From an uncultured Thermoplasmata archaeon (GTDB lineage: Archaea > Thermoplasmatota > Thermoplasmata > Halarchaeoplasmatales > Halarchaeoplasmataceae): a DNA stretch of 64,000 bases. The notes beneath the pieces are model-generated. The model was not told the DNA's origin. It saw only the letters and a program-made list of their open reading frames with translations, and did no database searches. The stretch is from positions 12,314 through 76,313 of the forward strand of contig CAZPCW010000001.1 in the NCBI GenBank assembly GCA_964585175.1, written 5' to 3'. The translations under genes and the position numbers were made by a program. Below, piece after piece: positions 12,132 through 30,751 of this stretch. Position 1 is the stretch's first letter. Every line of letters starts with the position of its first letter.

Positions 12132-12248
12132 AAAAAGTCAACTTCTTCATTTTTGATTTTCAAATCCTATTATCAAAACGGATAACAATACTAGAAAAAT
12201 AAAGATGGAATAACCCTGGGAGGGTTGTGGGAAATAATTTCTATTTTT

Positions 12249-12851
12249 CTAAAGGTGCATTATATCTTTGTGGTACACGGAAGGAGTCACTAAAGTCTCT
12301 ATCGTACTTGCTCCATGTTTTGGAGTGAACTGTATATTCATCTCGGACTGTGGACCGAGGTTAAATCCTACTTTAGTGGTGTTGACTGTTACCTGTAGTG
12401 TAGTACCACTAGCGATTAATGGATTATCTTCAGCGTCGAACTCGCCTTCAGGATCCATAAGGGCTTCCGCTGTATAGTTGTGCTCACTAGTTTCCGTTGC
12501 ATTGTATTCTAAAGCTGTTTGATTATTTCCGTCATCGACGTGTATCAATAGGTTTTCAAGATTTTGAGGTGGTGTGCCGGGTCCAACTCCTATATTGAAA
12601 TGTATTTTTCTTAGATCCGTTCCGTTATTGTCTCTAATTCCGAGGATCGACCTTACCTTGATGTAAGTCGAGACCTCGGCCATCGCTTCTTCCGCGGACT
12701 GTTCGGCCTGCTGTTTTAACATCGTCGCTGTTCGGATGAAAACACCTGCTGACACTGCAGACACTAGAACTATCGCTATAAAGATCATCAGGGTTCCCAC
12801 ACCCATCATAGCGTTTTCGTCTTCTTCGGTATTCCTTTTTATACGCCTCAT
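12249..12851 (-). CDS. arlB: Archaellin (ArlB/FlaB family), divergent paralog 1
   Basis: Class III signal peptide plus hydrophobic N-terminus MRRIKRNTEEDENAMMGVGTLMIFIAIVLVSAVSAGVF and the archaellin C-terminal beta-domain ending QFTPKHGASTIETLVTPSVY. Confidence 0.8.
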   Translation of the reverse strand: MRRIKRNTEEDENAMMGVGTLMIFIAIVLVSAVSAGVFIRTATMLKQQAEQSAEEAMAEVSTYIKVRSILGIRDNNGTDLRKIHFNIGVGPGTPPQNLENLLIHVDDGNNQTALEYNATETSEHNYTAEALMDPEGEFDAEDNPLIASGTTLQVTVNTTKVGFNLGPQSEMNIQFTPKHGASTIETLVTPSVYHKDIMHL

Positions 12852-13552
12852 AAATTATCCGCCTCTTAGACACCCGGTCAAGGGCAATTTCGAACAGGCG
12901 CAATCAGTTCCTGTTCTCGTTATGAAATATCATTATCGATATAAATAGTAGTTTCGAAAGTGGTATCATTCTTGATAAAAAACACAAATTATCATCTTTG
13001 AAAATCAATATCGAAGGTAAATGATTCAAGAATCTATTTCATTTTGATTTTTCATCCGGGTCATTATCAATATTGAAAATACAGCAATATGTTTATTTAC
13101 TATGATGTAATAATCATATTTGATAACATGTCCCTAGGATCCCAGGATTCTGTGGATTCTTCGGTCCTGGAATTTGAAAAGTTTCTTGGAATTGGATGGG
13201 AACCTATTTCGGTCAGGATGGAAAGAACGAAGAAAGGACCTAATCACTTGGAACAAACGATAACGATCTCCTGCATTCGAAGGAAACAGGCGGTCGAAGG
13301 CGAAAAGCAGTTCTGTGGGCGGTCTAATCTTCGTTTGGAGTTTTTGATGGAAGATGGAAAAAGTTCTTCCACACAGGATTAAAAACCTCTTTTCTCTTTA
13401 TTTTTGTGCCTTATTTGTTTCATGAAAATCATTTTTGATTTTAAGTAGTGAAAATGTTATTTAGATAGAAAGTATCTTTTCTATCTTAAAGATATAAAAT
13501 ACTAATAGTATTAAAAATAATAAGAAAATCAGTAAGATACAAATACCACTTT

Positions 13553-14047
13553 TTGTCTTATGTAATATTGATGTCAAAGAAAAACATCAAGGTGAGCGAA
13601 GTAGTTTATGATAGACTTGTAGCTGAAAAAGAGGGAAATGAGAGTTTTGACGACACTTTGAGAAGGATACTGGAACTTTCCCCGGACATCCAGGATTTAG
13701 CGGCATATTATCCGGATGAGATGAGAGATATGTCGAAGGAGATAGTAGATTTTATTTTCCAGATGGATGATTTCAAAAGGAACGTGAATAGGGGAAGTGA
13801 ATGTGATACGTTAAAATTCATACCGGAAGATTCCGACTTGGCTGTCGCCCAGATACAGTTTTGGGAGGACAGTTTGAAGATAATGTACAGGAACAAGAAC
13901 GGAGATATGGATTGGATAACTTCTCTCGTTGTAGGGAACGATAAAGATACGAATTTCGGTTACGATCTCGATGGTGAATTCGACGAGTTAAAGGAGGAAA
14001 TCAAAAGAAAAATAAAAGGTGCAATAAGAAAATGGGCCGGTTCATGA
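13553..14047 (+). CDS. Hypothetical protein with an N-terminal CopG/RHH antitoxin-like domain (COG1753-like)
   Basis: KNIKVSEVVYDRLVAEKEGNESFDDTLRRILE resembles the small archaeal antitoxin-like family (motif KtItVsdEvYekL...g.eSFSdvI.rLLe). The likely start is the internal Met at 13571. A further 110 aa downstream are acidic and of unknown function. The gene sits inside the archaellin array on the opposite strand. Confidence 0.35.
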   Translation: MSYVILMSKKNIKVSEVVYDRLVAEKEGNESFDDTLRRILELSPDIQDLAAYYPDEMRDMSKEIVDFIFQMDDFKRNVNRGSECDTLKFIPEDSDLAVAQIQFWEDSLKIMYRNKNGDMDWITSLVVGNDKDTNFGYDLDGEFDELKEEIKRKIKGAIRKWAGS

Positions 14048-14053
14048 TAAAAA

Positions 14054-14108
14054 GAGAGGTAAAATCCCCGGGCCTAGGGACATGTTTTATCACCGGGGTT
14101 TACCTCTC
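14054..14108 (+). terminator. GC-rich extended hairpin immediately 3' of the 13553..14047 ORF
   Basis: GAGAGGTAAAATCCCCGGG-(20 nt loop containing CCTAGG)-CCGGGGTTTACCTCTC. It is a 10-bp perfect outer stem plus a 6-bp inner stem, in an otherwise AT-rich intergenic region. Confidence 0.4.
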
Positions 14109-14313
14109 CCATTCATTATGAATACAATCAGGGACCGGTGAGTTATAGGGACGTATTGTTTATCTAGATTGAAGTTTATAAAGCTTTGATGATTATTATC
14201 AGTTTGAATAATTTGGTAAAAGTTATTGGATTGTTCTTTATAGAAAATTAGTGATTCAGAAGAGAATAAAAAAGCAAAAATAGAGAAAGTAGAAAGGGTT
14301 TTTAATCTCAGCT

Positions 14314-14936
14314 TTATAGATCTACCATCCGCTCAGTTATAACAGGCGGTGTGACTACTTCTTCATAGGTCGGCGTGCCGTGTTTTGGTATGATCCTTAT
14401 GTTGAGCGGTTCCTGTGTTCCTACTGATCCATCTATCGCATTGTCTAGATTGACGGTGATATTGTACAAGTCCCCAGATTCTACGTACTGGTCCTCACTA
14501 CCATCCTGCTCTTTGATAACTTCCCAATCATAGTGTGTGTTTGTGTTCACTGGACTGGTAGCAGAGCCATCAGTACCATCGGGTCCCTGTAGGTTTACTT
14601 CCTGAGTGTTGTTCTGCACTTCGATTACAGTTTGATTGAGGTCCTGCCCTGTGGCTCCGGCTGCTAAACTCACCTTCAGATATATCGCATCTATTTCACC
14701 ATCAGCGGTGCCAGTGGCGGCATCCAAATCTTGACCGTAAATCTCCTGCACCTTGAAAGAGCTGGACACTTCTCTGATCGCTTCGTCACCTGTCCTCTCA
14801 GCCTGCTACTGCAGCTGATTAGCGGTATCGATGAGTACACTCGCGGCTACAGCCGCCACTAAGACCATCGCTATGAACACTATGAGCGTGCCTACGCCCA
14901 TCGCACCTTTGTCGTCTTCTCTCTTTATCCGCTCAT
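14314..14936 (-). pseudogene. arlB: Archaellin (arlB) pseudogene with an in-frame TAG nonsense codon and a start-proximal frameshift
   Basis: Homologous along its whole length to the neighbouring archaellins. It keeps the promoter, the SD (GGAGG) and an ATG at 14934-14936, but a 1-nt deletion near codons 2-6 puts the ATG out of frame (ATG AGC GGA TAA). Where the intact paralogs have CAG in [10 protein letters not shown], this copy has TAG at 14806-14808 (minus strand). The ORF track recovers only the 151-aa distal fragment 14314..14769. Confidence 0.7.
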
Positions 14937-15116
14937 ATTTGGTATTTTCCTCCTATTCGAATACAGCATGATAATCATCACTGTTTCTCAATATATAATT
15001 AAAGAATTAATTATACTGATCCATATTCAACAGCGATAATCCAAGGTGATAAAACTTAGACACATTTCTATGATCTAAGAAATTTATTATTTGAGCTTAG
15101 AAAAGACAAAAATAGA

Positions 15117-15145
15117 AAAAAGTAGAAAGGGTTTTTATTTCATTT
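15117..15145 (-). terminator. Conserved archaellin 3' element AAAAACCCTTTCTAC followed by a T-tract (transcript sense)
   Basis: The plus-strand motif AGTAGAAAGGGTTTTT recurs within 30 nt after the stop of six archaellin copies (about 14288, 15121, 15917, 16688, 17523, 18306). Oligo-U tracts follow on the mRNA. Confidence 0.5.
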
Positions 15146-15760
15146 TTACAGATCTACTAAGGTGCTTGTTATCGTTGGCGGAGTGACTACCTGCTCGTAA
15201 GTCGGCGTGCCGTGCTTCGGTATTATGTTTATATCGAGTTGTTCTTGTGTTCCTATTGTTCCACCCAGATCATTTTGTAGATTGATAGTGATCTTGTAAA
15301 GATCACCACTTTCGACATACTGGTCTTTATCGCCGTCCTGTTCTTTGACAACTGACCAGTCATAGTGGATTTCGTCAAGATTCTCACTAGCGGCTCCATT
15401 TCCGTTTCCATCGGCTCCTTGTAAATTGACTTCTGCACTCTTATTCTGTAACTGCACTATCGTCTGATTGAGATCTTGTCCGGTCGCACCAGCTGCTAGT
15501 CCTATTTTCAAAGTTATATTCTGGATTTCGTTTGCATCAGTAGATTCATTCGTTTCTCCAAAAACATCCTGTACCTGGAACGAGCTGGACACTTCTCTGA
15601 TCGCTTCGTCACCTGTTCTCTCTGCCTGCTGCTGTAGCTGGTTCGCGGTATCGATGAGTACACTTGCCGCAACAGCGGCCACCAAGACCATCGCTATGAA
15701 CACTATGAGCGTGCCTACGCCCATCGCACCTTTGTCGTCTTCTCTTTTTATCCTTCGCAT
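15146..15760 (-). CDS. arlB: Archaellin (ArlB/FlaB), major-type paralog
   Basis: [57 protein letters not shown] is a class III signal peptide (KGA|MGVGTL) followed by the conserved hydrophobic helix. The C-terminus is [27 protein letters not shown]. An AGGAGA SD lies 8 nt upstream. Confidence 0.85.
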   Translation of the reverse strand: MRRIKREDDKGAMGVGTLIVFIAMVLVAAVAASVLIDTANQLQQQAERTGDEAIREVSSSFQVQDVFGETNESTDANEIQNITLKIGLAAGATGQDLNQTIVQLQNKSAEVNLQGADGNGNGAASENLDEIHYDWSVVKEQDGDKDQYVESGDLYKITINLQNDLGGTIGTQEQLDINIIPKHGTPTYEQVVTPPTITSTLVDL

Positions 15761-15786
15761 AGTTATTATCTCCTTTCGGATACAGC

Positions 15787-15818
15787 ATGATAATCATCTC
15801 TTTTTATCATTATATAAT
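15787..15818 (-). promoter_or_regulatory. Archaellin promoter/leader: TATA box ATTATATAAT (15809-15818), palindrome ATGATAATCAT (15787-15797), SD AGGAGA (15769-15774)
   Basis: The same arrangement is conserved upstream of the copies starting at 14936, 16531 and 17308, with the palindrome at 14968-14978, 16558-16568 and 17334-17344. A variant TCGATAATCAC sits at 18163-18175. Confidence 0.6.
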
Positions 15819-15940
15819 TTGATAAACAATTATGCTGACTCATATTCAATAGTGATAATCCGAGATGATAAAACACAGATAAACATCTACAATATAAAAA
15901 TCTAAAATAGAAAAAAGTAGAAAGGGTTTTTAGTTCATTT

Positions 15941-16531
15941 CTACAGATCAACTAGCTCGGTGGTTATCGTTGGCGGAGTGACTACCTCTTCGTAGGTAGG
16001 TGTTCCGTGTTTTGGTATTATATTTATGTCTAGATCCGCTTGGGTTCCTAATTGGCCTACCGTGTTTTCAAGATCGATAGTTATATTATAGAGATCGCCG
16101 GATTCTACGTACTGGTCTGAACTACCTTCTTGTTCTATGATCGAACTCCAAGAATAGTTATTTGAACCCGGACCTTCTCCCTCTGCACCTGCAGCAACTA
16201 AGTTTTGTTCACTCGTGTTAGTTTGTATTTGAATAACGGTTTGATTGAGGTCCTGTCCCGTAGCTCCTGCTGCTAAACCAACCTTCAATGTCAGTTCATT
16301 GAGTTCACCACTGTCAGAAGTATCCCTACCGAACACGTCCTGCACCTGGAACGAGCTGGATACTTCCCTGATCGCTTCGTCACCTGTTCTCTCTGCCTGC
16401 TGCTGTAGCTGGTTCGCAGTATCGATAAGTACACTTGCCGCAACAGCGGCCACTAAGACCATCGCTATGAACACTATGAGCGTGCCTACGCCCATCGCAC
16501 CTTTGTCGTCTTCTCTCTTTATCCTTCGCAT
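15941..16531 (-). CDS. arlB: Archaellin (ArlB/FlaB), major-type paralog
   Basis: The first 70 codons and the upstream 170 bp are nucleotide-identical to the 15146..15760 copy. The central variable domain differs. Confidence 0.85.
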
Positions 16532-16711
16532 AGTTATTATCTCCTTTCGGATACAGCATGATAATCATCTCTTTTTATCATTATATAATTTGATAAACAA
16601 TTATGCTGACTCATATTCAATAGTGATAATCCGAGATGATAAAACACAGATAAACATCTACAATATAAAAATCTAAAATAGAAAAAAGTAGAAAGGGTTT
16701 TTAGTTCATCT

Positions 16712-17308
16712 CTACAGATCTACTAGCTCGGTGGTTATCGTGGGCGGCGTGACAACTTCTTCGTAGGTCGGTGTTCCGTGTTTCGGTATTATGTTGATGT
16801 CTAAGTCTGCCTGAGTACCTATCGAGTCTATATCAGTTGCACTAAGATCGACCGTTATATTATAGAGATCGCCGGATTCTACGTACTGGTCTGAACTACC
16901 TTCCTGTTCTATAATAGATGTCCATGCATAGTTATTTCCGATAGGATCAGCTCCTTCAGATGTGGCAGCCACCAGATTCACTTCACTTTCATTACTCTGG
17001 ATCTGAATTATGGTTTGATTCAGATCCTGTCCAGTTGCTCCAGCTGCTAGACCTACCTTCAAAGTTATCCTATCAATTTTATGATCACTCGCATCTAAAT
17101 TTCTACCGAACACGTCCTGCACCTTGAAAGAGCTGGACACTTCTCTGATCGCTTCGTCACCTGTTCTCTCTGCCTGCTGCTGTAGCTGGTTCGCGGTATC
17201 GATGAGTACACTTGCCGCAACAGCGGCCACCAAGACCATCGCTATGAACACTATGAGCGTGCCTACGCCCATCGCACCTTTGTCGTCTTCTCTTTTTATC
17301 CGTCTCAT
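16712..17308 (-). CDS. arlB: Archaellin (ArlB/FlaB), major-type paralog
   Basis: Same conserved N-terminus and C-terminus as the neighbouring copies, with a variable central domain containing N-x-S/T sequons. Confidence 0.85.
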
Positions 17309-17545
17309 ATTTTATCTCCTTTCGAATACAGCATGATAATCATCTCTGTTTTTCACTATATAATTTAATAAACAGTTATATCGGAAGGTATTCAATTTTG
17401 ATAATCTTCTTCTATAAAACGACCTTACTTATTCAGAGTGGTCTACCTTTAAAATCAGAATTGGGTTTTTATGATTATTCAAGAAGTCAGGAGATCTAAA
17501 AAGATCTAAAATAAAGTAATTAAAAGAAAGGTTTTTTAAATTAGC

Positions 17546-18136
17546 TTAGAGATCGACTATTTCACTAGTTACCGTAGGAGGTACAACTACTTCTTCATAT
17601 GTAGGTGTCCCGTGTTTCGGTATTATGTTTATATCTAGATTAGCCTGTGTTCCTAAAGATCCTACCGTGTTTTCAAGATCGATGGTTATATTGTAGAGAT
17701 CGCCGGATTCTACGTACTGGTCTGAACTACCTTCTTGTTCTATGATCGAACTCCAGGAATAGTTATTGGATCCCGGACCTTCACCTTCTGCGCCGGCAGC
17801 AACTAAGTTTTCTTCGGTAGTGTTACTCTGAACTTGAATAACAGTCTGGTTAAGATCCTGTCCAGTTGCTCCAGATGAAAGGGCAACTTTTAGGGTTGCT
17901 CTTTCTATTTCATTATCATCATCGATGTTTCTGCCAAATGCATCCTGTATTTTGAACGAGCTAGACACTTCACGTATCGCTTCGTCACCTGTTCTCTCAG
18001 CCTGTTGTTGTAACTGGTTAGCGGTATCGATGAGTACACTTGCGGCTACTGCAGCCACTAAGACCATCGCTATGAACACGATGAGTGTTCCGACGCCCAT
18101 CGCGCCTTTGTCGTCTTCTCTTTTTATTCTTCTCAT
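17546..18136 (-). CDS. arlB: Archaellin (ArlB/FlaB), major-type paralog
   Basis: The ORF-track start at 18187 is over-extended. The true start is the Met of [11 protein letters not shown] at 18134-18136, which has an AGGAGA SD 8 nt upstream like its siblings. Confidence 0.8.
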
Positions 18137-18330
18137 GGTTATTATCTCCTTTCGGATACAGCATCGATAATCACCTTCCTTATTCATTATATATATTCGC
18201 TAGTGATTATCTCTCAGCGTAAATCAATCTTGATAACGGGAGTTGATAGTCTATGAAAACGAAGATTACTCTTATATATTGAAGAAGCCTGTAAAAAAGA
18301 TATAAAAAGAAAGGGTTTTTTTTCGGTTAT

Positions 18331-18933: not shown

Positions 18934-19225
18934 AGTTACTATCTCCTTTCGGATACTCTAGTTTAATCACCTTCCTAATTGATTATATAAATTCGGAACC
19001 AATTATCCTTTAAGTTTTCAAATATCAATTATATAAGGAGGTTATAACGATAAAGAATCACGCGCGTTTACAAACTATGTTTATTAAGCTAAAAAGTCAA
19101 TTGTAATTATCAAGCACAATAACATCGAGTAAACGCTTATATCTGATAAGAATATTAATTTAATAGTCTTAGCAGGCCTATTACAGATTACAACCCTTTT
19201 TTCCCTGAAGGCTATTATCTAGAGA

Positions 19226-19259: not shown

Positions 19260-19274
19260 AAACTGTTTATCATA

Positions 19275-19952
19275 ATGCTTGAGGACTTAAGAGAGACAGA
19301 GCTATTTCAAGGGTCTTCATCGTTCAGACGGGCCCGGTTGTCCGATGACGAATCTGCTTCCACAGGAGTCAGTTCATTGATGCTTCTGATCGCCACGATA
19401 ATGATCACGGCGATAGTGGCCGGGGTCCTGGTAGATACGGTGACCAAGCTCCAAAATCAGTCGGAGAAAACCGCTGACCAGGCTATATCGGACGTGAGCA
19501 CGGGGATGAACACTCTTTCATTGACAGGAGATAGAAAGGAAAACGGGAATTCGAGTAAACCAACATCAAATGAAATAGAGGTGGTGGAAGTGATAGTTAG
19601 ACTTCAGTCGGGAAGCAATCCTGTAGATATGGATGACGTCGTGACTATAATTAACGACGGTAACACAACAAGTGAATTGCTCCATAATCCAGATACGAAT
19701 GATCCGACGGGAGCTGATGATACTAATTTCACTACAAAAGTTCTTAGAGATCCTGAAGGGGACTACGCGGATTCCAATGTGATGAATCAGGGTACTTTGG
19801 TAAAGATCTACATAGACGCTAACCTTACCGGTCTTCAACTGGACACCAATACCCCTGTTGAAATCAAAATTATACCAAATACCGGCCAATCCACTCAGAT
19901 ATCCTTCACCACTCCTTCAGTCTATGCTTCAAGGAAGGTGAATCTGAAATGA
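19275..19952 (+). CDS. Archaellin-like protein (divergent ArlB/ArlA-type) heading the arl accessory operon
   Basis: Archaellin-type hydrophobic N-terminus GVSSLMLLIATIMITAIVAGVLVDTVTKLQNQSEKTADQAISDV and archaellin-like C-terminus EIKIIPNTGQSTQISFTTPSVYA. Its central domain (DDGN.T...DPEGDY) resembles paralog 1 at 12249 more than the five major copies. Confidence 0.6.
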   Translation: MLEDLRETELFQGSSSFRRARLSDDESASTGVSSLMLLIATIMITAIVAGVLVDTVTKLQNQSEKTADQAISDVSTGMNTLSLTGDRKENGNSSKPTSNEIEVVEVIVRLQSGSNPVDMDDVVTIINDGNTTSELLHNPDTNDPTGADDTNFTTKVLRDPEGDYADSNVMNQGTLVKIYIDANLTGLQLDTNTPVEIKIIPNTGQSTQISFTTPSVYASRKVNLK

Positions 19953-20014
19953 TAAGGAAGAGTTTAAATAAGGTTAGATATCAAATTTATATTTACGCGC
20001 GAAGGTGGTAAGAT

Positions 20015-23000
20015 ATGGTAGACTTCGGAAAGTTGTTGGGAAAAGACAAAGATGAAGAAGAGGAAGATGAAGCCGAAGAAGAATCGGAAGGCGACATAGA
20101 TGATATTATAGACGGCGACGAAGGAGAGGGGGGGATGGGTCCGATGGGCGCGGATATGGACGAAGGTGAAGGTATCGGACCGCAGGGTGGTGGAGAAGGA
20201 GGTATGGGCGTGGCGCCCGACGTTAGGGACGATATTGACAGAAATAGAGATGACATCAGAGAAGTGGAAAATAAAGTAGAAACCATGAATGACACGGTAG
20301 ACGATATAGAGGAAAGAGTAAATGATCTTGAAGAAGATATAAGTCAATTATTAGATGTTTATGAGATGGTGACCGCTGAATTCAATCCTTTCTTAGAAGA
20401 AGGCGGCGGTTTAAGCGGAGGAGGTGGATCCTCTGAAGAAGGAGGCGGAGATGACTGGGATAGTATGGATTTCGGTGGATCACCTGAAGAAGAAAGCGAA
20501 GAAGAAAGTTCTGAAGGATCACCTCTTGATGAACTTGTAGAACCCCCTGAAGAGGAGCAAGAAGAGGAAGCGCCCGAAATGCCAGATATCGGATCCCCAG
20601 GTGAAGAAGAAGCCCCTGAAGCTCCGACGGAAACACCTCCTCAAGATCAATCTCAGGAACCAAAAAGTCCTGAACCCGCTCAGCCGGAGACCCCACAACA
20701 GCCTGCACAAGAACAACAGGCTCCACCTCAAACAGAACAAACCCAAGAACCCGTTCAACAACCCTCGACACAGCAAGAAGAATCTCAACAATCTCCTCAA
20801 CCCGCACAAGAACAGGTTCAGGAGCCTACCCAACAACCACAAACCCCTACCCAAGAACCTCAGCAACCGGCTCAAAAACAGCAAACCTCTCCACAGCAAC
20901 AACCAACACCTTCTCAAGAATCCAAACAACCGGCTCAAGAGCCTGAAAGGTCTACTGAACCTCAGCTATCTAAAGAACCAGGACCCGTCATGGAAGAGTC
21001 AGTTGAAACCATGGAAGAGGCACCAGGAGGTGAAATAACTGATGCCGAAGAACTACTAGATGAACTTGAAGGTGGGACTATGTATTTACTCGAATCTAGT
21101 GATGAGGATTTTCCATATGAAATATTTCAAGCTCTAGTTAAAGACAGATCTGGATTATGCCTAGTTAGAAACCACCCCGATGATATAAAAGACAATTATG
21201 ACATGACAGGAGTGGAATACGGGTGGCTTTCATCCTCTGGTGAAGACGTTGCTATTGGACCTGACGAATTAGATCTATTGGGCTTGACTATAGAGAGATT
21301 CATTTCGGAAGATGATGGAATAATACTCCTTGATGGGATTGGTTATCTTCTTTCGAACAATCCCGAATCTACTGTTATCCATTTCATACAATCCCTGCAG
21401 GATCAGATAACAGTCAAATCTACAATATTCTTGATCGTAGTCGATCCAGAGGATATGGAGCAGAAGAACATAGATCTGATCAAGAATGAACTTGATCTAG
21501 AAGTCAAAAAGAAAGAGGAGCTCTCTAAGGATACTGGAAGGAGCATCAGTGGAGGAGAAGAAAACCTAGTCTCAAAAGTAAGAAGAATGATGCAGTTCCT
21601 GGAAGAACAGGAGAAAAATCTTCAGGAGAGAGTCGATGAAATCAATCAGAAGACCATACCAGAATTTTCAGAGAGTATGGATTCGTCTGTAGTAAAAGAA
21701 GCTATCGAAGATCTGAAAAAAGAAAACAGAAGGCTTAAAGAGGAACTAGATAGATTGAAAGAAGAAGAATCGGAAGAGGAGATAGATACTTCTCCAGAAA
21801 GAGCTAAAGACATAAAGGAAACGATGGATCTATTCAAAGAAGAAAAAGAAACCCTTGAGGAGATAAAAGAACTTGAAGAGGAAGAAGAGGTGGAAGAAGA
21901 AGTCGGTGAAGAACCTTCTGCTATAATCGAAGCTATACAAGATCTCGAAGAAGAGATCGATAAGTTGAAGGATGAGATGAAAGAGCTCAAAGAAGGTGCT
22001 CCAGAAGAAAGTGAAATTGTCGAAAAAGAAGAAACTATAGAGGGTATTGATGAAAGTTTGAAAGGAGAAACGGAAGTTGAAGTGGAACCAGAACCTGAAC
22101 AGGAAATCAAAATCGAAGAACCAGAAGAATCAGTTGAAGAGGAATCGATGGATGAAATCACCGATATACCCGGAAATATAGACGAAAAAGTCGATGTTGA
22201 AATCGAGGAAGAAACAGGAATAGAAGAAGAAAAAGAAGCTGAGGAATCGGGTCTTCCGGAAATAGAAGAAGAGGAAACTGAAGAGCTCGAAGTAGAAGAA
22301 CCGGGGATGGAAGAATCAGAAGCGGAAGAAAACAAAGAGGAAAAAACGGTTGAAGAAAAAAGCGAAGAAAAACCAGAAGAAGAAACTTCCATCTTGAAGG
22401 AAATGATACAGGGTCTAGAAAAAGAAATAGATGGTCTAAGGAACGAAATCCAGGATCTAAAACAGGGTGAAGAGGAAACTGAAGCTATTGGTGAAGAAAC
22501 CGGCGAGAAGATTGAAGAGATCGAGGAAAAAGATCTAGCGAGTGAAGCAGCAGAGAAAGCTGGTGAGATCGTTGAAGAGGTAGAAGAAGAGCTGGGCGAA
22601 GATATGGTCGATGAGGATGTACAGGAGGAAAGCGAAGAGGAAGAAAAAGAGATGGAAGAAGTGATGGAAGTGATCGAAAAGGAAGAACAATTGATGGAAG
22701 AACCTGAAAAAGTTAAAGAAAAAGTAGGATCTGAGGAAGTGGAAAGCCCAGTCCAGACTGAAGGATCAGAAGAAGAGAAAGAAGAGGAACTCGAATCGGA
22801 TCATTTAACTGAAGACGCTGAAAAAGGGATTGAAGAGGACAAAGAAGTGATGCCAGAGCGCGAAGAGCCGATAGAGGAAAGTGAGAAAGAGACAGAAGAT
22901 AAAGAAATAGAGCCCGAAAAGAAAGAGGAAACAGTCGAGGAGCCAAAAATAGATGAAAAAGAAGAAGGAACTATCTATTCTGAGGAAGAAATACAGTTAG

Positions 23001-23458
23001 AGCCAGAGTCGGAGATATCTGGTGATATAGCATCTGATAGTGATGTCCAGATCGAGAAAGATGTGAAAGTTGACGGATCTTTGAGTGCAGAAGAGGATAT
23101 CAAAATACACGAAAAAACTGAGATACAGGGAGATATAAAATCTGATTCTGGTGACGTAAATATAGGTGAAGAGTGTAAGGTGGGAGGAGAGATCAATGGA
23201 AAGAAAGTGTTAATCTCTAAAGGAAGTGAAGTGGAAGATATTGAAGCAGAAGAAAAAGTGATCTTGGAAGAAAATACGAAAGTGAATAAAGTTTTGTGTG
23301 AAGGTGACGTGAAGCTGTCAGAAAACGTCCAGATCGAAGAAGGAATTGAGTACGGTGGCCAATTACTATTTGAAGGAGATAAGATAAGTATCGGTGATCT
23401 GGTTCATCCGATAAATGAAGACGAAGAGGTGGTGAAAGAAAGATGGGCTTCTCAGTAG
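20015..23458 (+). CDS. Giant acidic multidomain protein: ArlC/D/E-like N-terminus, PQ-rich linker, DUF835-like (KaiC-lobe-like) domain, a long Glu-rich coiled coil of about 450 aa, and a bactofilin-like beta-helical C-terminus
   Basis: It occupies the position of arlCDE, between the archaellin-like gene and arlF. N-terminal coiled coil ending LLDVYEMVTAEFNPF, which I read as ArlD/E-family-like. A P/Q/E low-complexity block around 20580-20990. Block GLCLVRNHPDDIKDNYDMTGVEYGWLSSSGEDVAIGPDELDLLGLTIERFISEDDGIILLDGIGYLLSNNPESTVIHFIQSLQDQITVKSTIFLIVVDP, which I read as DUF835-like. An extremely E/K-rich region with heptad-like periodicity. C-terminal 150 aa built from the repeat D/E-V-x-I-x-G-D-I/V (SGDIASDSDVQIEKDVKVDGSLSAEEDIKIHEKTEIQGDIKSDSGDVNIGEECKVGGEINGKKVLISKGSEVEDIE...), which is bactofilin-like. 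The 3' end overlaps the arlF start by 16 nt. Confidence 0.55.
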   Translation: MVDFGKLLGKDKDEEEEDEAEEESEGDIDDIIDGDEGEGGMGPMGADMDEGEGIGPQGGGEGGMGVAPDVRDDIDRNRDDIREVENKVETMNDTVDDIEERVNDLEEDISQLLDVYEMVTAEFNPFLEEGGGLSGGGGSSEEGGGDDWDSMDFGGSPEEESEEESSEGSPLDELVEPPEEEQEEEAPEMPDIGSPGEEEAPEAPTETPPQDQSQEPKSPEPAQPETPQQPAQEQQAPPQTEQTQEPVQQPSTQQEESQQSPQPAQEQVQEPTQQPQTPTQEPQQPAQKQQTSPQQQPTPSQESKQPAQEPERSTEPQLSKEPGPVMEESVETMEEAPGGEITDAEELLDELEGGTMYLLESSDEDFPYEIFQALVKDRSGLCLVRNHPDDIKDNYDMTGVEYGWLSSSGEDVAIGPDELDLLGLTIERFISEDDGIILLDGIGYLLSNNPESTVIHFIQSLQDQITVKSTIFLIVVDPEDMEQKNIDLIKNELDLEVKKKEELSKDTGRSISGGEENLVSKVRRMMQFLEEQEKNLQERVDEINQKTIPEFSESMDSSVVKEAIEDLKKENRRLKEELDRLKEEESEEEIDTSPERAKDIKETMDLFKEEKETLEEIKELEEEEEVEEEVGEEPSAIIEAIQDLEEEIDKLKDEMKELKEGAPEESEIVEKEETIEGIDESLKGETEVEVEPEPEQEIKIEEPEESVEEESMDEITDIPGNIDEKVDVEIEEETGIEEEKEAEESGLPEIEEEETEELEVEEPGMEESEAEENKEEKTVEEKSEEKPEEETSILKEMIQGLEKEIDGLRNEIQDLKQGEEETEAIGEETGEKIEEIEEKDLASEAAEKAGEIVEEVEEELGEDMVDEDVQEESEEEEKEMEEVMEVIEKEEQLMEEPEKVKEKVGSEEVESPVQTEGSEEEKEEELESDHLTEDAEKGIEEDKEVMPEREEPIEESEKETEDKEIEPEKKEETVEEPKIDEKEEGTIYSEEEIQLEPESEISGDIASDSDVQIEKDVKVDGSLSAEEDIKIHEKTEIQGDIKSDSGDVNIGEECKVGGEINGKKVLISKGSEVEDIEAEEKVILEENTKVNKVLCEGDVKLSENVQIEEGIEYGGQLLFEGDKISIGDLVHPINEDEEVVKERWASQ

Positions 23459-24651
23459 CTGGTTCCGGCGGAATAATCTTTGTAGCTCTTATCGTTACCT
23501 TCTCTGCACTCTCAGGAGCTTTTTACTCCAGCATGGAGAACTTTGAAACTGAGATAAATGATAGTTCGGAAAGAAAGATATATCGGCAACAGACGGACAT
23601 CGAAATAAAGTCCGTAATGTATAATAGGACCAATAACCAGACGGTAATCAAAGTCAAAAATACCGGTTCAACTGTTTTGAACGCTACAAAAAGCGACGTC
23701 GTTCTAGACGGAGAAATCATAAACTCTGAAAATATAACCTTCGATAATGAAGAATATGAAGGTTATCATTGGCCGCCTGAAGAGGATTTGAAGATAAGAT
23801 TGAACGATGTAGACCTGGACTTTATACCGACCGTTAGCGAAAGAGTTGGTAATAAGGTTACGAAAGGAATAACCCTACCAGGTTCTATCAGTTCAAATTC
23901 AAATTATACATATGTTATAGAAGATGGAGATGTAGACGATAGAGGAAACATCTCGATATATGATTACAAAAATAATCTGATCAACACGATATCGGGAGGT
24001 ATCCTAGATAAAGCCACGGACCTCTCTTCTAATTACCAAAATCTTTTCGTTATCGATAATCAAAATCACGTAGACAAGTTTGATCTTGAAGGGGGTGGTG
24101 GAGTTGAACATATAACGAACGGAGAATTGACTTCACCTAAAGCAATATCGGTTACTGATGAAAATACTCAAGACTACATTTACATCTTAGATGATAACTC
24201 CCATGTAGATAGATTTAACCTGAACGGTTCCTATCATGATACTCCAGTGACAAACCTTGATGGCGTTATAGACATTTACGTCACGGACCATATCTACTTG
24301 GTTAATGAAACATCGAACAGTGTAGAAAGGTACTCTCTTGACGGCACCACACATAGCACTTTGATCTCGGGTGGAGAACTTTCTGATCCTAGTAATATTA
24401 CAGTGAGCGATCAGAACTTTGCTTCTCCACGAATATATGTCGTTGATTCTAGTTCTCATGTAGATGTGTTCGATACTGATGGGACCTTCATAAAGACGAT
24501 CGAAGAAGAAATGGGTAGTCAGTTGGGAGGTATAGATGTAGCAGGAAAGATATTCATCGGTAATGGATTGAACGGATGGTTCAGACTCAATCTTGGCCCT
24601 AAGTTAAAAGTAGTTCTTGAAAACGGAATAGCAGATTATGAAAGAATATAG
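23443..24651 (+). CDS. arlF: ArlF (FlaF)-like protein fused to a C-terminal NHL-repeat beta-propeller
   Basis: N-terminal TM plus FlaF/FlaG-family domain (MGFSVAGSGGIIFVALIVTFSALSGAFY...VIKVKNTGSTVLNATKSDVVLDG), homologous to the ArlG next door (VYVKNTGSTRMNMTDVKILVNG). Repeated NHL-like blades follow: LFVIDNQNHVDKFDLEGGG, IYILDDNSHVDRFNLNGSY, IYLVNETSNSVERYSLDGT, IYVVDSSSHVDVFDTDGTF. Confidence 0.6.
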   Translation: MGFSVAGSGGIIFVALIVTFSALSGAFYSSMENFETEINDSSERKIYRQQTDIEIKSVMYNRTNNQTVIKVKNTGSTVLNATKSDVVLDGEIINSENITFDNEEYEGYHWPPEEDLKIRLNDVDLDFIPTVSERVGNKVTKGITLPGSISSNSNYTYVIEDGDVDDRGNISIYDYKNNLINTISGGILDKATDLSSNYQNLFVIDNQNHVDKFDLEGGGGVEHITNGELTSPKAISVTDENTQDYIYILDDNSHVDRFNLNGSYHDTPVTNLDGVIDIYVTDHIYLVNETSNSVERYSLDGTTHSTLISGGELSDPSNITVSDQNFASPRIYVVDSSSHVDVFDTDGTFIKTIEEEMGSQLGGIDVAGKIFIGNGLNGWFRLNLGPKLKVVLENGIADYERI

Positions 24652-24663
24652 GAGGTAAAAAAT

Positions 24664-25101
24664 ATGGGATTCTCTATATCGAGTTCGCACTTGGTCTTTT
24701 TCTTGGCCTCGATGGTAGTGGCATCTACGCTAGCAGGAGTATTTATCACTTCTACCGATACTATTTCCAACGCGATAAGATCAAGAGAGGACTCGTTGAG
24801 CGAAAGGATGAAAAGCGATATCTCTATAATCAATGACCCAAACAATATGCCGAACGATCCATTGACAGTATATGTAAAAAATACCGGTTCGACAAGGATG
24901 AATATGACTGATGTAAAGATACTTGTTAATGGAACGCTTCAACAGACTTCTTCCATCCAACTGGTAGATAGTGACGATAACTATTGGTCACCCACAGATG
25001 TTATAAAGGTGGAAGTAGATATTAATTTACCAGCTGGCGATCACTGGCTAAAAGTTGTGGCTTCTCACCAATCGGAAGATACCTTAGAATTCACTATATA
25101 A
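24664..25101 (+). CDS. arlG: ArlG (FlaG) archaellum stator/accessory protein
   Basis: 145 aa with N-terminal TM helix MGFSISSSHLVFFLASMVVASTLAGVFI and a FlaF/FlaG-family beta-sandwich region. Its position after arlF is canonical. Confidence 0.65.
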   Translation: MGFSISSSHLVFFLASMVVASTLAGVFITSTDTISNAIRSREDSLSERMKSDISIINDPNNMPNDPLTVYVKNTGSTRMNMTDVKILVNGTLQQTSSIQLVDSDDNYWSPTDVIKVEVDINLPAGDHWLKVVASHQSEDTLEFTI

Positions 25102-25113
25102 AAGGTGGTATAG

Positions 25114-25809
25114 ATGGTAGAGATTAGAGAGATAGATATACCTCGTGACGATCTCTCCGATATGCTCGGAGGAGGTTTCCCATCATCATCCCTTGGAATA
25201 ATTGAGGGTAGATACGGTACTGGAAAGTCAGTGTTCACTCAACGCTTAACGTATGGGTTTTTAGAAAATGGTTATCAGGTTTCAGTGATATCTACGGAGT
25301 TGACCGTAAAGGGATTCATCGAACAGATGGATTCCTTGGGGTACAAAATAACATCCTATCTCTTGAATCACGATCTGCTATTCATACCAATTTACGGAAT
25401 GCTTCAACAGGAGTCCTCTACAAATTACGTAGAAAAATTGATGAGTGGAGAAAAGATATTCGAATCTGATGTCATAGTGGTAGACACATTTTCGGCCCTA
25501 GTAAATAAAGATTCTAACCCTGAAGAGTCTTTGAAAAAGTTGGAAAGTTTCACACAGAGACTTTTAGCGCAGGGTAGAACTATTCTGTTGAATATCGAAT
25601 CAGGCCCTTCTTCTGAGAAACTGTTCCCCCCCTTCTATTCCTCCGCACACATGCTTTTTGAGATGGAGCTTAACCAGGTCGGTGGAACCGTCTCCCAGGA
25701 AATCAATATAAAAAGATTTGCTAAAGCTGGAGGCGGAGTTTCTAATAGCATCGCTTTTAGGGTCGAGCCTGGAATCGGATTTGTATTAGAAATCACATCG
25801 GTGGGATAA
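25114..25809 (+). CDS. arlH: ArlH (FlaH) KaiC/RecA-like ATPase
   Basis: Walker A motif GRYGTGKSVF, 231 aa, RecA/KaiC-like layout. Its position before arlI is canonical. Confidence 0.8.
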   Translation: MVEIREIDIPRDDLSDMLGGGFPSSSLGIIEGRYGTGKSVFTQRLTYGFLENGYQVSVISTELTVKGFIEQMDSLGYKITSYLLNHDLLFIPIYGMLQQESSTNYVEKLMSGEKIFESDVIVVDTFSALVNKDSNPEESLKKLESFTQRLLAQGRTILLNIESGPSSEKLFPPFYSSAHMLFEMELNQVGGTVSQEINIKRFAKAGGGVSNSIAFRVEPGIGFVLEITSVG

Positions 25810-25810
25810 G

Positions 25811-27460
25811 ATGTCTCCCGTACAGCAGCATGAAAGTTCATTGGCGCAAGCTAGAAAGAGGAACCCGCACCTTAATGAATATATCAAGGGGCTACAAAGT
25901 AGAGGCATCGACGTTCCTGTATTGAAAAATAGGGTGGATAGAGATCTAAAAGATCAAAACGAAGTGAATATAATATATCCTATAGGTGATCCTATCTTCG
26001 TCCACGTTTATGGGACCGAGAACAGTGGATACAATTACAACGGGATAGAACCTGAATTAGATACTGAAAGCAGGGAACTCCTTCAAGAAATACAGGATTT
26101 TATCTTTGAAAAAGCTGCTTTTGAAGACGTAAAAGACGATCCAGAAAAATTAAAAGATCTTATCGAAGAATCCGTTGAGGAATTCGTCGATAAGGAAACC
26201 AGTGGACTATTATTCAGCAGGGATATACCAAAAGAGAGGGTGAGAAGAGTAAAATACAGACTGATGAGAGATCTGGCTGATCTAGGACCTCTTGAACCTC
26301 TTATGAGAGATCCTTATATAGAAGATATTTACGTAGTTGGTTTAGAACCTATCAAACTCATCCATAAGATATTCGATGAGATGAAGACTAATCTACAATT
26401 CGAGACAATGGAGAAGCTCGATGAATATCTAGTCAATCTAGGGGATAGAGTCGACGTGGATGTGAACGCTTCGGATGCTGTATTTGACACTGCAATGCCA
26501 GATGGATCTAGACTTAATATAATATATCCCGAAGATATTTCGATAAAAGGACCCAGTTTTACGATAAGAAAGTTCGAAGAGACACCTCTTACAATGCCAC
26601 AGATAATTAAGTGGAATACATTCAGTCCGAGGATGGGTGCATACATGTGGCTAGCCATGGAGCATGGCATGTCTGTCATCGTTTCCGGAGAGACAGCTTC
26701 GGGTAAAACTACTACTTTTAACTCAATGTTACCATTCATTCCTCATAACAATAAGGTTTACTCGGTTGAAGATACGGCAGAAGTCCAACCCCCTCAAGAG
26801 ACTTGGCAGCAGATGATAATCAAAGAATCGGAAGACGAGCAGATATCTGTCGAATACTTTGACCTTATAAAGGCCGCTATGAGGAGTAGACCAGAGGCTC
26901 TCCTTGTGGGAGAGATCAGAGGTGAAGAAGGTAATATCGCTTTCCAGGCCATGCAGACCGGTGTACCCGTCATCTCCACTTTCCACGCAGCTTCAGTCCA
27001 CAAGTTAATACAGAGGATGAGTGGAGAACCGATAAACGTTCCTTTACACTTTTTCCCGAATCTTGATTTCGTCGTTATACAGCAGGCGGTTTATGTTGGT
27101 GGTGAATTTCTGAGAAGGATGTTAGCTCTAACCGAGATAACCGGTTACCTGAGAGAAGAAGACAGCGTAGAGGTCCGAGAGATATTTGGATGGGATCCTG
27201 TCAGTGACAGTTTCGACTTTAGAGGAAAATTTAACAGTCAGCTTTTAGAAGAAAAGATAGCTCCAAGGATGGGTTTTGATGATAAAAGAGACATATATTT
27301 GGAGCTGGAAAAAAGAGCCCAGATAATCAAAAACATGATCAGAGAAGATATATTGGGTTATGATGAGGTAATAGAGACACTAAGAAAATGGCATAGAGGA
27401 GGTATGGAATCTCTGCCTCCCCGTTTAAGAGTAAAAGATTCCCAGGTTAGCATAAAATAA
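25811..27460 (+). CDS. arlI: ArlI (FlaI) archaellum motor ATPase (type II/IV secretion ATPase family)
   Basis: Walker A motif SGETASGKTTTFNSMLPFIP, Asp box, His box (STFHAAS) and an N-terminal FlaI-specific domain. It lies immediately upstream of arlJ. Confidence 0.85.
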   Translation: MSPVQQHESSLAQARKRNPHLNEYIKGLQSRGIDVPVLKNRVDRDLKDQNEVNIIYPIGDPIFVHVYGTENSGYNYNGIEPELDTESRELLQEIQDFIFEKAAFEDVKDDPEKLKDLIEESVEEFVDKETSGLLFSRDIPKERVRRVKYRLMRDLADLGPLEPLMRDPYIEDIYVVGLEPIKLIHKIFDEMKTNLQFETMEKLDEYLVNLGDRVDVDVNASDAVFDTAMPDGSRLNIIYPEDISIKGPSFTIRKFEETPLTMPQIIKWNTFSPRMGAYMWLAMEHGMSVIVSGETASGKTTTFNSMLPFIPHNNKVYSVEDTAEVQPPQETWQQMIIKESEDEQISVEYFDLIKAAMRSRPEALLVGEIRGEEGNIAFQAMQTGVPVISTFHAASVHKLIQRMSGEPINVPLHFFPNLDFVVIQQAVYVGGEFLRRMLALTEITGYLREEDSVEVREIFGWDPVSDSFDFRGKFNSQLLEEKIAPRMGFDDKRDIYLELEKRAQIIKNMIREDILGYDEVIETLRKWHRGGMESLPPRLRVKDSQVSIK

Positions 27461-27475
27461 GTAATATGGGATAAT

Positions 27476-29134
27476 ATGGATATAGAAATATTAGAACATT
27501 ACCAGAAGATGGAGATGTCCTTTAGGGATTACATACTTGGAGGTTTACTTCCATCTATAGTTCTATTTATCCTTATTGTTTTCTTCCCTAGTTTGATATT
27601 TCCCGAAATCCTTCTAGAAGGATTCTTGATGTTTTTTACTCAATATGTTCTTCCTACGGTGATTCTAGTTCTAGCTATACTTTTCCCCATAATTATTAGA
27701 AAATTGAAAAAGGAGGAAATCGATTCTTATCTTCATCTATTTATCACATTCTTTTATGCGTTATCCACTTCTGCCGTATCTGAAGCGAGGATGATAAAAA
27801 AGCTCTCGGAAGTCGACGAATACGAATCTTTGGCAGATGAGATTAAAAAGGTCTATAGTAGAATGGAATACTGGGATATGCCTTTACCTGAAGCGGCGAG
27901 GGACGTTGCGGATGAAACACCCAGTGAAAGGTTATCAGACTTTTTAACCAGGCTCGCCCACTCGCAGGAAGCCGGAGAGAACATGACTACCTTTCTCGAA
28001 AAAGAGCATTCTGTAGTTATGAAGGATTATGAAACAGAGTATAGATCCGCACTCGAGACGCTCGATCTACTGAAGGAAGTCTTTATCGCACTGATGACTT
28101 CGACTCTATTTCTTTTAGTCTTCCTGAGCATCCTTCCGATCTTTAGCGGTACTTCGGCGATGCTGCTTTTAACGGGAGGATTAGTTGTATTCATAATAAC
28201 GGAGGTGATCATGGCCGTAGCCGTAAAAACCGTCATGCCAAATGATCCCATTTGGCATCAATTAAATAGAAGACCTCCTCTGACGAGTAAGCTAAAAAAA
28301 GTAATACCCGCCTGTGTAGTGGGAGCTGTAGTACTTTTCTTTGTATTGGTATCCTACATACAATTAGATATATTTTGGATAGTCGCTATTTCACTGAGTC
28401 CTTTCATAGCCCCGGGTTTGATGATATATTTCTCTGAAAAGGAATTGAAAAGGTCTGATAATAACTACGATGCGTTCATGAGAGCTATAGCGAGTAGTAT
28501 CGCGATGAAAGGAGGAAGTGTAGAGAACGCTTTACAAAAACTGAGGCAGTACGATTTCGGACCACTAACTGAAGAGATCGAAAAACTATACAAAAGGTTG
28601 CTGACTAGGATCGACGAAGAAAAAGCTTGGAGATTTTTCGCTTCTGGTACTGGAAGCAATCTTATAGCCACTTTTACGAACATATATAACGGTTCGACAG
28701 ATTTAGGTGCCAATGTCAGAGATGTCAGCGATATAATCTCAGACACGTTCGTTAGAATCCTTTCTTTGAGAAAAGATAGATATCAGCAGGCTTCCGGCAT
28801 GATAGGGATCTTTTATGGGTTGGGCCTTGGTGCCGCACTGACTCTTACTTTGACCTTGAACATATCGGTTATGATGAACGATTCGATCGGGATGGTCACT
28901 CAAACATCAGAATTTTCAAACATTCTGCACCAAGTTCAATACAGCCCTCAGATGATCCAAATATTTATCCTGGCTGCGATACTTGTACACGCCATATTTG
29001 CTTCTCTCTCTTTGGTGATGTCTGCAGGTAGTCATAAGCTGTCGATCCTTTACCACACCGTAGGTATGACCTGGATAGGAGTCGTTTCCTCTTTGATCGC
29101 TCGTTCGGTAATGAGCGGACTTATTGGGGTGTGA
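27476..29134 (+). CDS. arlJ: ArlJ (FlaJ) archaellum platform membrane protein (TadC/GspF family)
   Basis: 552 aa, polytopic (multiple long hydrophobic segments), two cytoplasmic domains. Its position after arlI is canonical. Confidence 0.75.
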   Translation: MDIEILEHYQKMEMSFRDYILGGLLPSIVLFILIVFFPSLIFPEILLEGFLMFFTQYVLPTVILVLAILFPIIIRKLKKEEIDSYLHLFITFFYALSTSAVSEARMIKKLSEVDEYESLADEIKKVYSRMEYWDMPLPEAARDVADETPSERLSDFLTRLAHSQEAGENMTTFLEKEHSVVMKDYETEYRSALETLDLLKEVFIALMTSTLFLLVFLSILPIFSGTSAMLLLTGGLVVFIITEVIMAVAVKTVMPNDPIWHQLNRRPPLTSKLKKVIPACVVGAVVLFFVLVSYIQLDIFWIVAISLSPFIAPGLMIYFSEKELKRSDNNYDAFMRAIASSIAMKGGSVENALQKLRQYDFGPLTEEIEKLYKRLLTRIDEEKAWRFFASGTGSNLIATFTNIYNGSTDLGANVRDVSDIISDTFVRILSLRKDRYQQASGMIGIFYGLGLGAALTLTLTLNISVMMNDSIGMVTQTSEFSNILHQVQYSPQMIQIFILAAILVHAIFASLSLVMSAGSHKLSILYHTVGMTWIGVVSSLIARSVMSGLIGV

Positions 29135-29140
29135 TCATAG

Positions 29141-30751
29141 ATGGAGAGGAAGTTAAAAGCCCATATGAAAAAAAATCCCTTTTTAGGGAGCTACATAAAA
29201 AGGGTCAGAAGAGAAGTAGGTGTGCCAAAATTTAGAGAGGAATGTCCAGATTGGGGAGACGTGAGGGATGATTTCAATATAATGTATCCCATAACAGATC
29301 TAGTTTATATCCATTGTTACGTTTCCGAGGACGAAGAGAAGCATTATATCGCGGTAGAACCCCCACTAAATGAAGAAAGGCAGGAAAAACTTGAGAAGGC
29401 TAAGAAGTATATCTATAGAGAGGCGGATTACGAGAAGGAGATCGAATACAGAGAAGAATTGAGGGAAATGATCCATGATATTTTTGACAGGATCGTGGGT
29501 GAAGGAGGAGGTTTCTTTTCGAAACTCCAAGGTAGGACATTAGACGTAGATGATGATGAGATACCTATCTTGAAATATTATGTTGTGAGAGACCTAGTAG
29601 ATTATGGAGTTCTTGATCCACTGATCAACGATCCTAATATCGAAGATATAAATTGTGTGGGAACAGAGCCTCTTACTATTATTCACCAAACATTTGGAAG
29701 GATAAAAACGAACATCTCATTTGACTCTGAATTTGAATTAGATGAATATCTGAAAAGACTAAGCCAAAGAATAGGCAGTCCGGTCGGTGAAGCTCATCCC
29801 ATCGTGGATACGGCTATGCCGGACGGATCTAGAATAAACATCGTTTATCCAGAAGATGTTTCTACCAAAGGCAGATCATTCACGATACGAAAATTTCCAG
29901 ATGATCCTATCTCTATAACCAATCTTATTGAATGGAATACTTTATCCCCAGAATTGGCTGGATATATATGGCTCTGTTTGGAAAACTCCATGTCCATCTT
30001 CATATGCGGAGAAACAGCTTCGGGTAAAACAACTACTCTGAACGCTTTTCTCCCTTTCATACACCTTGATAGTAAACTTTACAGCGTGGAAGACACCCCT
30101 GAAGTGCAGCCACCACACGATAATTGGCAGCAACTCATAGTCAGAGAAGAGGGAGCAGAAGATGAGCAGGTCGGTCAGTTCGATCTTTTGAGAGCAGCCC
30201 TCCGTTCAAGGCCAGATTATATAGTTCCCAGTGAGATAAGAGGAGAAGAAGGTAGAGTGGCGTTTCAGGGCATGCAGACAGGCCATCCTGTCATATCGAC
30301 TTTCCATGCCGACTCCATACACAGGATGATCCAGCGACTAACCGGCGAGCCTATCAGGATCCCGATAACTTTCATAGATAATCTGAACGTAGCGGTGATA
30401 CAAGACAGCTTTAGAACCAAAGGGGCCGTTTTGAGAAGAGTAACTGAGGTTGGAGAGATCATGGGTTACTCTGAAGAACAGGATGGAGTGATGATGAGGG
30501 TGGTATTCAAAAGAAATGAACAGGAAGATGAGCTGGAATTCGAAGGTATGTACAACAGCTTTATTCTAGAGGATAAGATCGCACAGATCCAAGGTTACGA
30601 CGATACTAGAAAAATCTACGATGTGATGGAAGAAAGAGCCCAGTTCTTAGAAGATCTCACGAGAAAAGGTATCTACGATTACGATAAGGTGGCGCAGCTG
30701 ATAGACGAATACAGGAAAGGCGGTAGAGAAAATCTTTCAATAAGGCTTTAA
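29141..30751 (+). CDS. Second ArlI/FlaI-like secretion-family ATPase (paralog)
   Basis: Walker A motif CGETASGKTTTLNAFLPFI, His box STFHADS, and the same domain order as ArlI (about 45% identity by eye: MYPITDLVYIHCY against IYPIGDPIFVHVY). It sits 7 nt after arlJ with no adjacent second TadC-like gene. Confidence 0.7.
   Translation: MERKLKAHMKKNPFLGSYIKRVRREVGVPKFREECPDWGDVRDDFNIMYPITDLVYIHCYVSEDEEKHYIAVEPPLNEERQEKLEKAKKYIYREADYEKEIEYREELREMIHDIFDRIVGEGGGFFSKLQGRTLDVDDDEIPILKYYVVRDLVDYGVLDPLINDPNIEDINCVGTEPLTIIHQTFGRIKTNISFDSEFELDEYLKRLSQRIGSPVGEAHPIVDTAMPDGSRINIVYPEDVSTKGRSFTIRKFPDDPISITNLIEWNTLSPELAGYIWLCLENSMSIFICGETASGKTTTLNAFLPFIHLDSKLYSVEDTPEVQPPHDNWQQLIVREEGAEDEQVGQFDLLRAALRSRPDYIVPSEIRGEEGRVAFQGMQTGHPVISTFHADSIHRMIQRLTGEPIRIPITFIDNLNVAVIQDSFRTKGAVLRRVTEVGEIMGYSEEQDGVMMRVVFKRNEQEDELEFEGMYNSFILEDKIAQIQGYDDTRKIYDVMEERAQFLEDLTRKGIYDYDKVAQLIDEYRKGGRENLSIRL

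Follow-up and report, generated by a model that had tools for sequence, protein, structure and literature searches.

A probable young archaellin pseudogene in the tandem archaellin array of an uncultured Thermoplasmata archaeon

Within a row of tandem archaellin genes belonging to an archaellum cluster, one copy has a reading frame that is broken close to its start codon and interrupted again by an in-frame TAG, which raises the question of whether it is a dead gene, a product of faulty assembly, a gene whose lesions are bypassed during expression, or a silent cassette held in reserve for its neighbours. The copy lies in a stretch of 64,000 nt, hereafter the window, from contig CAZPCW010000001.1 of assembly GCA_964585175.1, assigned to an uncultured Thermoplasmata archaeon, a host placement that follows from the closest homologs and a genome scan. 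We consider it likely that the copy is a young, non-functional archaellin (arlB/flaB) pseudogene and a member of a lineage-specific tandem expansion within the archaellum cluster (coordinates in Table 1).

Table 1. Archaellin copies, lesions and associated features of the archaellum cluster, in window coordinates
Feature	Position	Strand	Remarks
Archaellin (arlB/flaB) pseudogene	14314..14936	minus	207 codons once 1 base is restored; PF01917 match
Start-proximal lesion, ATG AGC GGA TAA	14925..14936	minus	1 base missing relative to ATGAGACGG in c16712
In-frame TAG for CAG (Gln44 of precursor, QLQ[Q]QAERTG)	14806..14808	minus	In conserved N-terminal helix
Residual open frame, 151 codons from GTG	14314..14769	minus	Variable globular domain, lesion-free
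Retained promoter and leader	14937..15042	minus	Basis: 18 intact copies, window and related MAGs
Intact archaellin, 204 aa	15146..15760	minus	Adjoins the pseudogene; its closest paralog, 71% aa identity
Intact archaellin, 196 aa	15941..16531	minus	5' 300 nt 97% identical to the 15146 copy
Intact archaellin, 198 aa (c16712)	16712..17308	minus	Paralog comparison
Intact archaellin, 196 aa from MRRIKR start	17546..18136	minus	Paralog comparison
Intact archaellin, 200 aa	18331..18933	minus	Ortholog L004_9204 in a related MAG
Divergent intact archaellin, 200 aa	12249..12851	minus	Ortholog at L006 15578-16201
Divergently transcribed archaellum operon	19275..30751	plus	From archaellin-like gene to second arlI

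The archaellum (arl) cluster in the window is complete. Its divergently transcribed operon runs from an archaellin-like gene (19275) through genes for a 1147-aa FlaC-domain protein (20015), arlF (23443), an arlG-like gene (24664), arlH (25114), arlI (25811) and arlJ (27476) to a second arlI (29141), with profile scores of 231 bits for ArlH, 640 and 660 bits for the two ArlI proteins and 517 bits for ArlJ, and with an ArlF-like gene also present. Several of these genes have features of their own. The two full-length ArlI/FlaI motor ATPase paralogs (25811-27460 and 29141-30751) sit on either side of arlJ, and both exceed the NCBIfam equivalog cutoff of 550 bits. The FlaC-domain protein (20015-23458) is extremely acidic and has a FlaC domain, DUF835 and, at its C-terminus, a bactofilin domain, arranged around long low-complexity Glu/Pro/Gln stretches; a 1090-aa ortholog occupies the same position in the related locus L006. 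The ArlF-like gene (23443-24651) encodes 402 aa, of which only the first ~130 residues match the 137-position ArlF model, the remainder forming a long C-terminal extension.

On the minus strand, six archaellin genes follow one another with a period of 771-832 nt, the broken copy being the last in the row, followed by a VapB-antitoxin-like gene of 164 aa on the plus strand (13553-14047) and then by the divergent archaellin. The disabled copy is thus one of seven archaellins in the window, and five close intact copies and two divergent ones were counted beside it. With one base inserted, its translation comes to 207 aa and matches Pfam PF01917 (Arch_flagellin) at E = 8.9e-32, with 111 bits against a cutoff of 29.5. 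The repaired frame begins with a class III signal peptide—a basic leader and a KG|A-type cleavage motif, the latter predicted from sequence—and continues into a hydrophobic N-terminal helix, and its first 43 residues are the same as those of the intact paralogs up to the TAG.

An alignment of the seven window copies places both lesions precisely. Read on the minus strand from 14936, the broken copy has ATGAGCGGATAAAGAGAG... where c16712 has ATGAGACGGATAAAAAGAG / ATGAGACGGATAAAAAGA; the missing base falls between 14932 and 14931, in codon 2, and the frame of the ATG meets a TAA at 14927-14925 (codon 4). The context of the deletion is neither a homopolymer nor a simple repeat. The second lesion appears on the plus strand as a G-to-A change at 14808, and the TAG that it creates (14808-14806) is the sole stop in the 207 codons of the archaellin frame; CAG stands at this position in each of the five close paralogs and in the divergent copy at 12249. 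The deletion would be expected to halt translation after three codons, and the nonsense change at codon 44 would truncate the archaellin frame within the N-terminal helix. Both lesions had been described in a first-pass annotation of the locus, as a 1-nt deletion after the ATG and a CAG that had become TAG, and the comparison with the paralogs bears out each of them.

Could the lesions be bypassed? One way would be for the copy to be expressed by recoding, with UAG read through or decoded as pyrrolysine and a programmed frameshift correcting the deletion; another would be for it to yield a truncated product from the ATG at 14901-14899 or the GTG at 14769. UAG is indeed decoded as pyrrolysine in some Thermoplasmata (Methanomassiliicoccales), and public annotation calls a 145-aa version of the residual open frame (P0001) as a protein. 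Yet TAG ends 14 of the 48 large open reading frames in the window, including three neighbouring archaellin genes, and thus appears to be an ordinary stop here rather than a recoded codon; neither a tRNA gene nor an Rfam match was found within the window. Programmed frameshifting and transcriptional slippage were likewise set aside, given the lack of a slippery site—no slippery heptamer is present at ATGAGCGGATAA—and of a homopolymer at the deletion. The required frame also has no start codon upstream: the sequence TAG GAG GAA AAT ACC AAA TAT GAG CGG holds none, and there is no ATG, GTG or TTG in the archaellin frame between the upstream TAG and the internal Met13 codon. As for truncated products, one initiated at Met13 (the ATG at 14901-14899) would have no class III signal peptide and would reach the TAG after 31 residues, and the 145/151-aa frame has no Shine-Dalgarno sequence 5' of it and would lack the N-terminal helix required in filament assembly, the helix that in archaellins builds the filament core. 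Expression of the copy by any of these routes therefore strikes us as exceedingly improbable.

A more mundane concern is that errors in sequencing or assembling a repetitive array introduced the lesions and that the true gene is intact. The array consists of ~800-nt repeats, which break other MAG assemblies at this point (contigs of 1.1-9.2 kb), and the mixing of paralog reads could account for four clustered synonymous differences in the neighbouring copy (15644-15665). A second assembly bears directly on the matter. Contig CAJOUF010000127.1 of another MAG (GCA_905333495.1), which we reached through P0001, a fragment returned by protein search, corresponds over its 3140 nt to window positions 12706-15845 with four mismatches and no gaps; it contains both lesions, and its four mismatches all lie elsewhere. 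A further MAG contig of that project, L002, matches window positions 16611-25818 at 99.978% identity, and this near-identity indicates that the assemblies sample one population, so that CAJOUF010000127.1 counts as an independent assembly and not as an independent lineage. The recurrence of both lesions, without gaps, in a separately assembled contig makes random assembly error unlikely. Moreover, neither lesion state exists in any paralog, and chimeric assembly thus cannot have made them; the deletion lies outside any homopolymer; and no further split gene was seen among the large open reading frames checked, the overlapping frames at 31671 and 32195 belonging to two different families. On these grounds we regard an artefact as very unlikely. 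The four differences, the only ones between the two assemblies over 3.1 kb, sit within 22 nt (positions 181-202 of the second contig) in the conserved N-terminal region of the 15146 copy and are all at synonymous third positions. They could represent strain polymorphism, a short conversion tract or paralog read mixing, and the variant is not that of any one paralog in the window. We considered whether the pseudogene had donated a conversion tract here and rejected this, as it shares only two of the four variant bases, and one of the four is found in no paralog.

Upstream of its ATG, the copy is better preserved. It has GGATTATC (15042-15035), a TATA-like TTATATAT (14998-14991), a conserved leader (14979-14949) and GGAGG (14953-14949), and this combination of promoter and leader stands at each of the six tandem copies compared, the five intact ones and the pseudogene. 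The leader of the pseudogene reads GATGATTATCATGCTGTAT.CGAA.AGGAG, in which an extra T at 14955, present in the pseudogene only, breaks the motif CGA[A/G]AGGA / CGAAAGGAG; the 18 intact copies examined, 5 in the window and 13 in related MAGs, all have the CGA[A/G]AGGA form unbroken. The first-pass annotation had described the regulatory region as intact, which is true of the TATA-like box, the leader as a whole and the GGAGG but not of this otherwise invariant motif. A change unique to the pseudogene in such a motif fits a decay that has only just begun.

The upstream cassette merits a description in its own right. Across species it can be written as ATTATC..TTGA..GATAATYG..TTATATA..(R)TGATTATCATGCTGTATCCGAAAGGAG, and its sites in the window comprise 14937-15042 and the equivalents 5' of 15760, 16531, 17308, 18136 and 18933, with further sites at the related loci L004-L011. 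Because it is conserved at the DNA level while its frame relative to the archaellin ATG varies, it looks like a regulatory DNA or RNA element (an operator plus 5' UTR) rather than an upstream open reading frame. Several public gene calls start wrongly at an ATG within the cassette (MLYPKGG...). We also considered the conserved upstream ATGCTGTAT... as an upstream open reading frame that might rescue the gene, and rejected it: its frame relative to the archaellin ATG varies among copies, and here it meets the same TAA.

How long ago the gene was lost can be judged from its substitutions, counted by the Nei-Gojobori method. Over the N-terminal 66 codons, the pseudogene and c16712 differ by 11 synonymous and 0 non-synonymous changes, and omega in this region is 0 to 0.03 for the pseudogene, as against 0 to 0.07 for intact pairs; in the rest of the gene it is 0.13-0.24 for the pseudogene against intact copies and 0.07-0.20 among intact copies. 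Set beside 59 close homologs, the translated pseudogene shows 0 deviations over the 47 columns conserved to 95% or more and departs at 2 of the 65 columns conserved to 90% or more, one of these two being the stop itself. Three changes are unique to the pseudogene, namely the leader insertion, the deletion and the nonsense codon. The signature of relaxed constraint—dN/dS rising towards 1 and changes at conserved residues—is absent from the copy. Such a constrained pattern of substitution, with the conserved columns untouched, indicates that the gene died recently, and the comparison argues firmly that it evolved under constraint for almost all its history. Since random mutations are mostly non-synonymous, the N-terminal 198 nt are unlikely to have taken up more than about two further neutral substitutions; on this reckoning, neutral divergence since inactivation would be of the order of 1-2% or less. 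Relaxed selection, which the first-pass annotation had proposed, thus holds only in the trivial sense that the lesions exist: relaxation has not accumulated, with omega like that of intact pairs and none of the 47 most conserved columns altered. Its call of a pseudogene is upheld by two independent disabling lesions seen in two assemblies, the lack of an in-frame upstream start, and the role of TAG as a normal stop.

In a neighbour-joining tree of the variable domain, the pseudogene is sister to the adjacent copy at 15146, within a five-copy clade specific to this genome, and other species have orthologs of the copies at 18331 and 12249. This placement assigns the pseudogene to a recent, redundant, lineage-specific expansion. 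The syntenic locus L006 of a related species contains the 794-aa neighbour, an ortholog of the divergent archaellin, the VapB-like gene, six intact tandem archaellins and the divergent operon, and none of 27 archaellin copies from related loci (L004-L012) has an internal stop, marking the disabled copy as an exception rather than a habit of the lineage. Insertion of the VapB-like gene as a recent event that set off the decay was rejected, since L006 has the same gene. The position of this gene is kept there (L006 14605-14993), with a match that spans two frames and may be frameshifted. An intact allele was sought by protein search of 5.8 billion clusters with the repaired query, which returned only the truncated 145-aa call (99% identity) and then paralogs at ≤71%. 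Two scans of JGI metagenomes for copy-specific patterns, one of them allowing either allele at the deletion, gave no match, and a scan of GTDB genomes found only relatives at ≤63%, the source species not among them; in the databases searched there was thus neither a close ortholog (>65% identity) nor an intact allele that would show the ancestral state.

Beside five close intact copies and two divergent ones, the loss of a single archaellin was probably tolerated, as part of birth-and-death evolution in a multigene family. Euryarchaeota typically carry several archaellin genes, with roles extending from major and minor components of the filament to ecoparalogs, and with some copies dispensable; multi-copy families (arlB/flaB, flgA/flgB) include the five genes of Halobacterium salinarum, flaB1-3 of Methanococcus and the seven genes of Halohasta litchfieldiae (PMC7349177). 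Like these families, the present one consists of tandem paralogs beside arlC-J, with a near-invariant signal peptide and N-terminal helix and a variable globular domain; it departs from them in having one copy disabled by point lesions, an uncultured member of the Thermoplasmata as host and five copies that form a lineage-specific expansion. A closer parallel comes from Halorubrum lacusprofundi ACAM 34, which lost flaB1 by recombination and deletion between paralogs and kept its motility genes and other copies (PMC7349177). There, and probably here, loss of a paralog was tolerated while other archaellin copies remained, but the former loss was a deletion, whereas the gene body persists in our case with a frameshift and a nonsense codon.

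A more far-reaching proposal for this locus is that the broken copy is a cassette kept silent or on standby, storing a distinct variable domain. Gene conversion could move this domain into expressed copies, or a single conversion tract from a neighbour, running across the conserved 5' 130 nt, could mend both lesions and turn the copy on again. Either way the filament surface could be varied, for example against archaellum-binding viruses. Several features invite the idea. The coding lesions and the unique leader change all fall in the conserved 5' part, and the variable domain is lesion-free. A Sawyer-type run test detects shared tracts between c15146 and c16712 (nt 8-182) and between c15941 and c17546 (nt 423-491), as well as one between the pseudogene and c15941 (nt 8-90; p = 0.0015 uncorrected), and the 5' 300 nt of the two neighbours at 15146 and 15941 are 97% identical. 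Set against these are the full length of the gene and its own promoter, which the pilS and vls cassettes do not have, and the presence of five intact copies, each with its own promoter, which leaves no single expression site. Nor is there a significant tract in the variable region of the pseudogene (best p = 0.03 uncorrected over 15 pairs), and its N-terminal dS of about 0.31 to the nearest paralog (11 synonymous sites) argues against recent homogenisation. That 27 of 27 copies in related species are intact indicates that silent cassettes are not a feature of the lineage; the confinement of both lesions to the first 21% of the gene, with a chance of ~0.04 under a uniform model, is unremarkable; and the Gln-rich QLQQQ stretch is inherently liable to nonsense mutation. 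Weighing the two sides, we think a silent or standby role for the copy quite unlikely.

The systems that inspired the proposal differ from the array in the same respects. The pilS cassettes of Neisseria and the vls cassettes of Borrelia are promoterless, 5'-truncated and numerous, and feed one expression site (pilE and vlsE, respectively); pilin variation in Neisseria further needs a G4-forming element. The resemblance to pilE/pilS and vlsE/vls lies in a filament subunit of the type IV pilin superfamily with a conserved N-terminus and variable domains, in the several homologous genomic copies and in signs of gene conversion between them. Here, by contrast, there are no promoterless or 5'-truncated cassettes, no single expression site and no G4 element, and only one copy in seven is disabled; no G-quadruplex motif of the form (G3+N1-7)x3 G3+ occurs on either strand in 12000-19500. 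Searches of the literature on archaellin pseudogenes, gene conversion and antigenic variation turned up no silent-cassette system for archaellins. The suggestion in the first-pass annotation that the copy serves as a silent donor, as in pilin antigenic variation, accordingly finds no support, the copy being full-length and promoter-bearing among five intact promoter-bearing copies, with no significant tract in its variable region and no G3x4 motif across the array.

It is further conceivable, though highly unlikely in our estimation, that the copy is a reversibly silenced standby archaellin, in which one short conversion tract would mend both lesions and switch on a different filament surface. 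This version would build on the position of the unique changes, all in the conserved 5' 190 nt, where paralogs may exchange by conversion, and on the pristine variable domain. Were it true, it would constitute an archaeal analogue of phase or antigenic variation, for instance against archaellum-binding viruses, and the pseudogene would gain such interest only if population data showed its repair, or donation of its variable domain, by gene conversion. Signs of exchange among the intact genes are a separate observation: two adjacent intact archaellins share 97% identity over 300 nt of promoter, leader and N-terminal coding part (15558-15857 and 16329-16628), whereas their variable domains have reached saturation at synonymous sites, which points to recent 5' homogenisation, or concerted evolution, within the array.

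Returning to the reading of a young pseudogene, we infer a copy devoid of residual function whose loss was neutral, although a 490-nt variable domain preserved in full, together with a kept promoter, would also be consistent with some remaining use. So understood, the locus adds one more example of something commonplace, a redundant tandem family losing one of its members, and it has little import beyond annotation: it should carry an arlB pseudogene label, and the 145-aa archaellin fragment in public databases is spurious. It also offers a clean snapshot of birth-and-death turnover, with one of six tandem copies only just disabled.

Elsewhere in the window, a CheB methylesterase domain (33748-34320) and a receiver (REC) domain (34328-34702) are encoded on the minus strand by two open reading frames 7 nt apart and in different frames, beside a CheF-like gene; this arrangement may reflect a cheB that is naturally split, a distinct CheY-like gene or one more frameshift.
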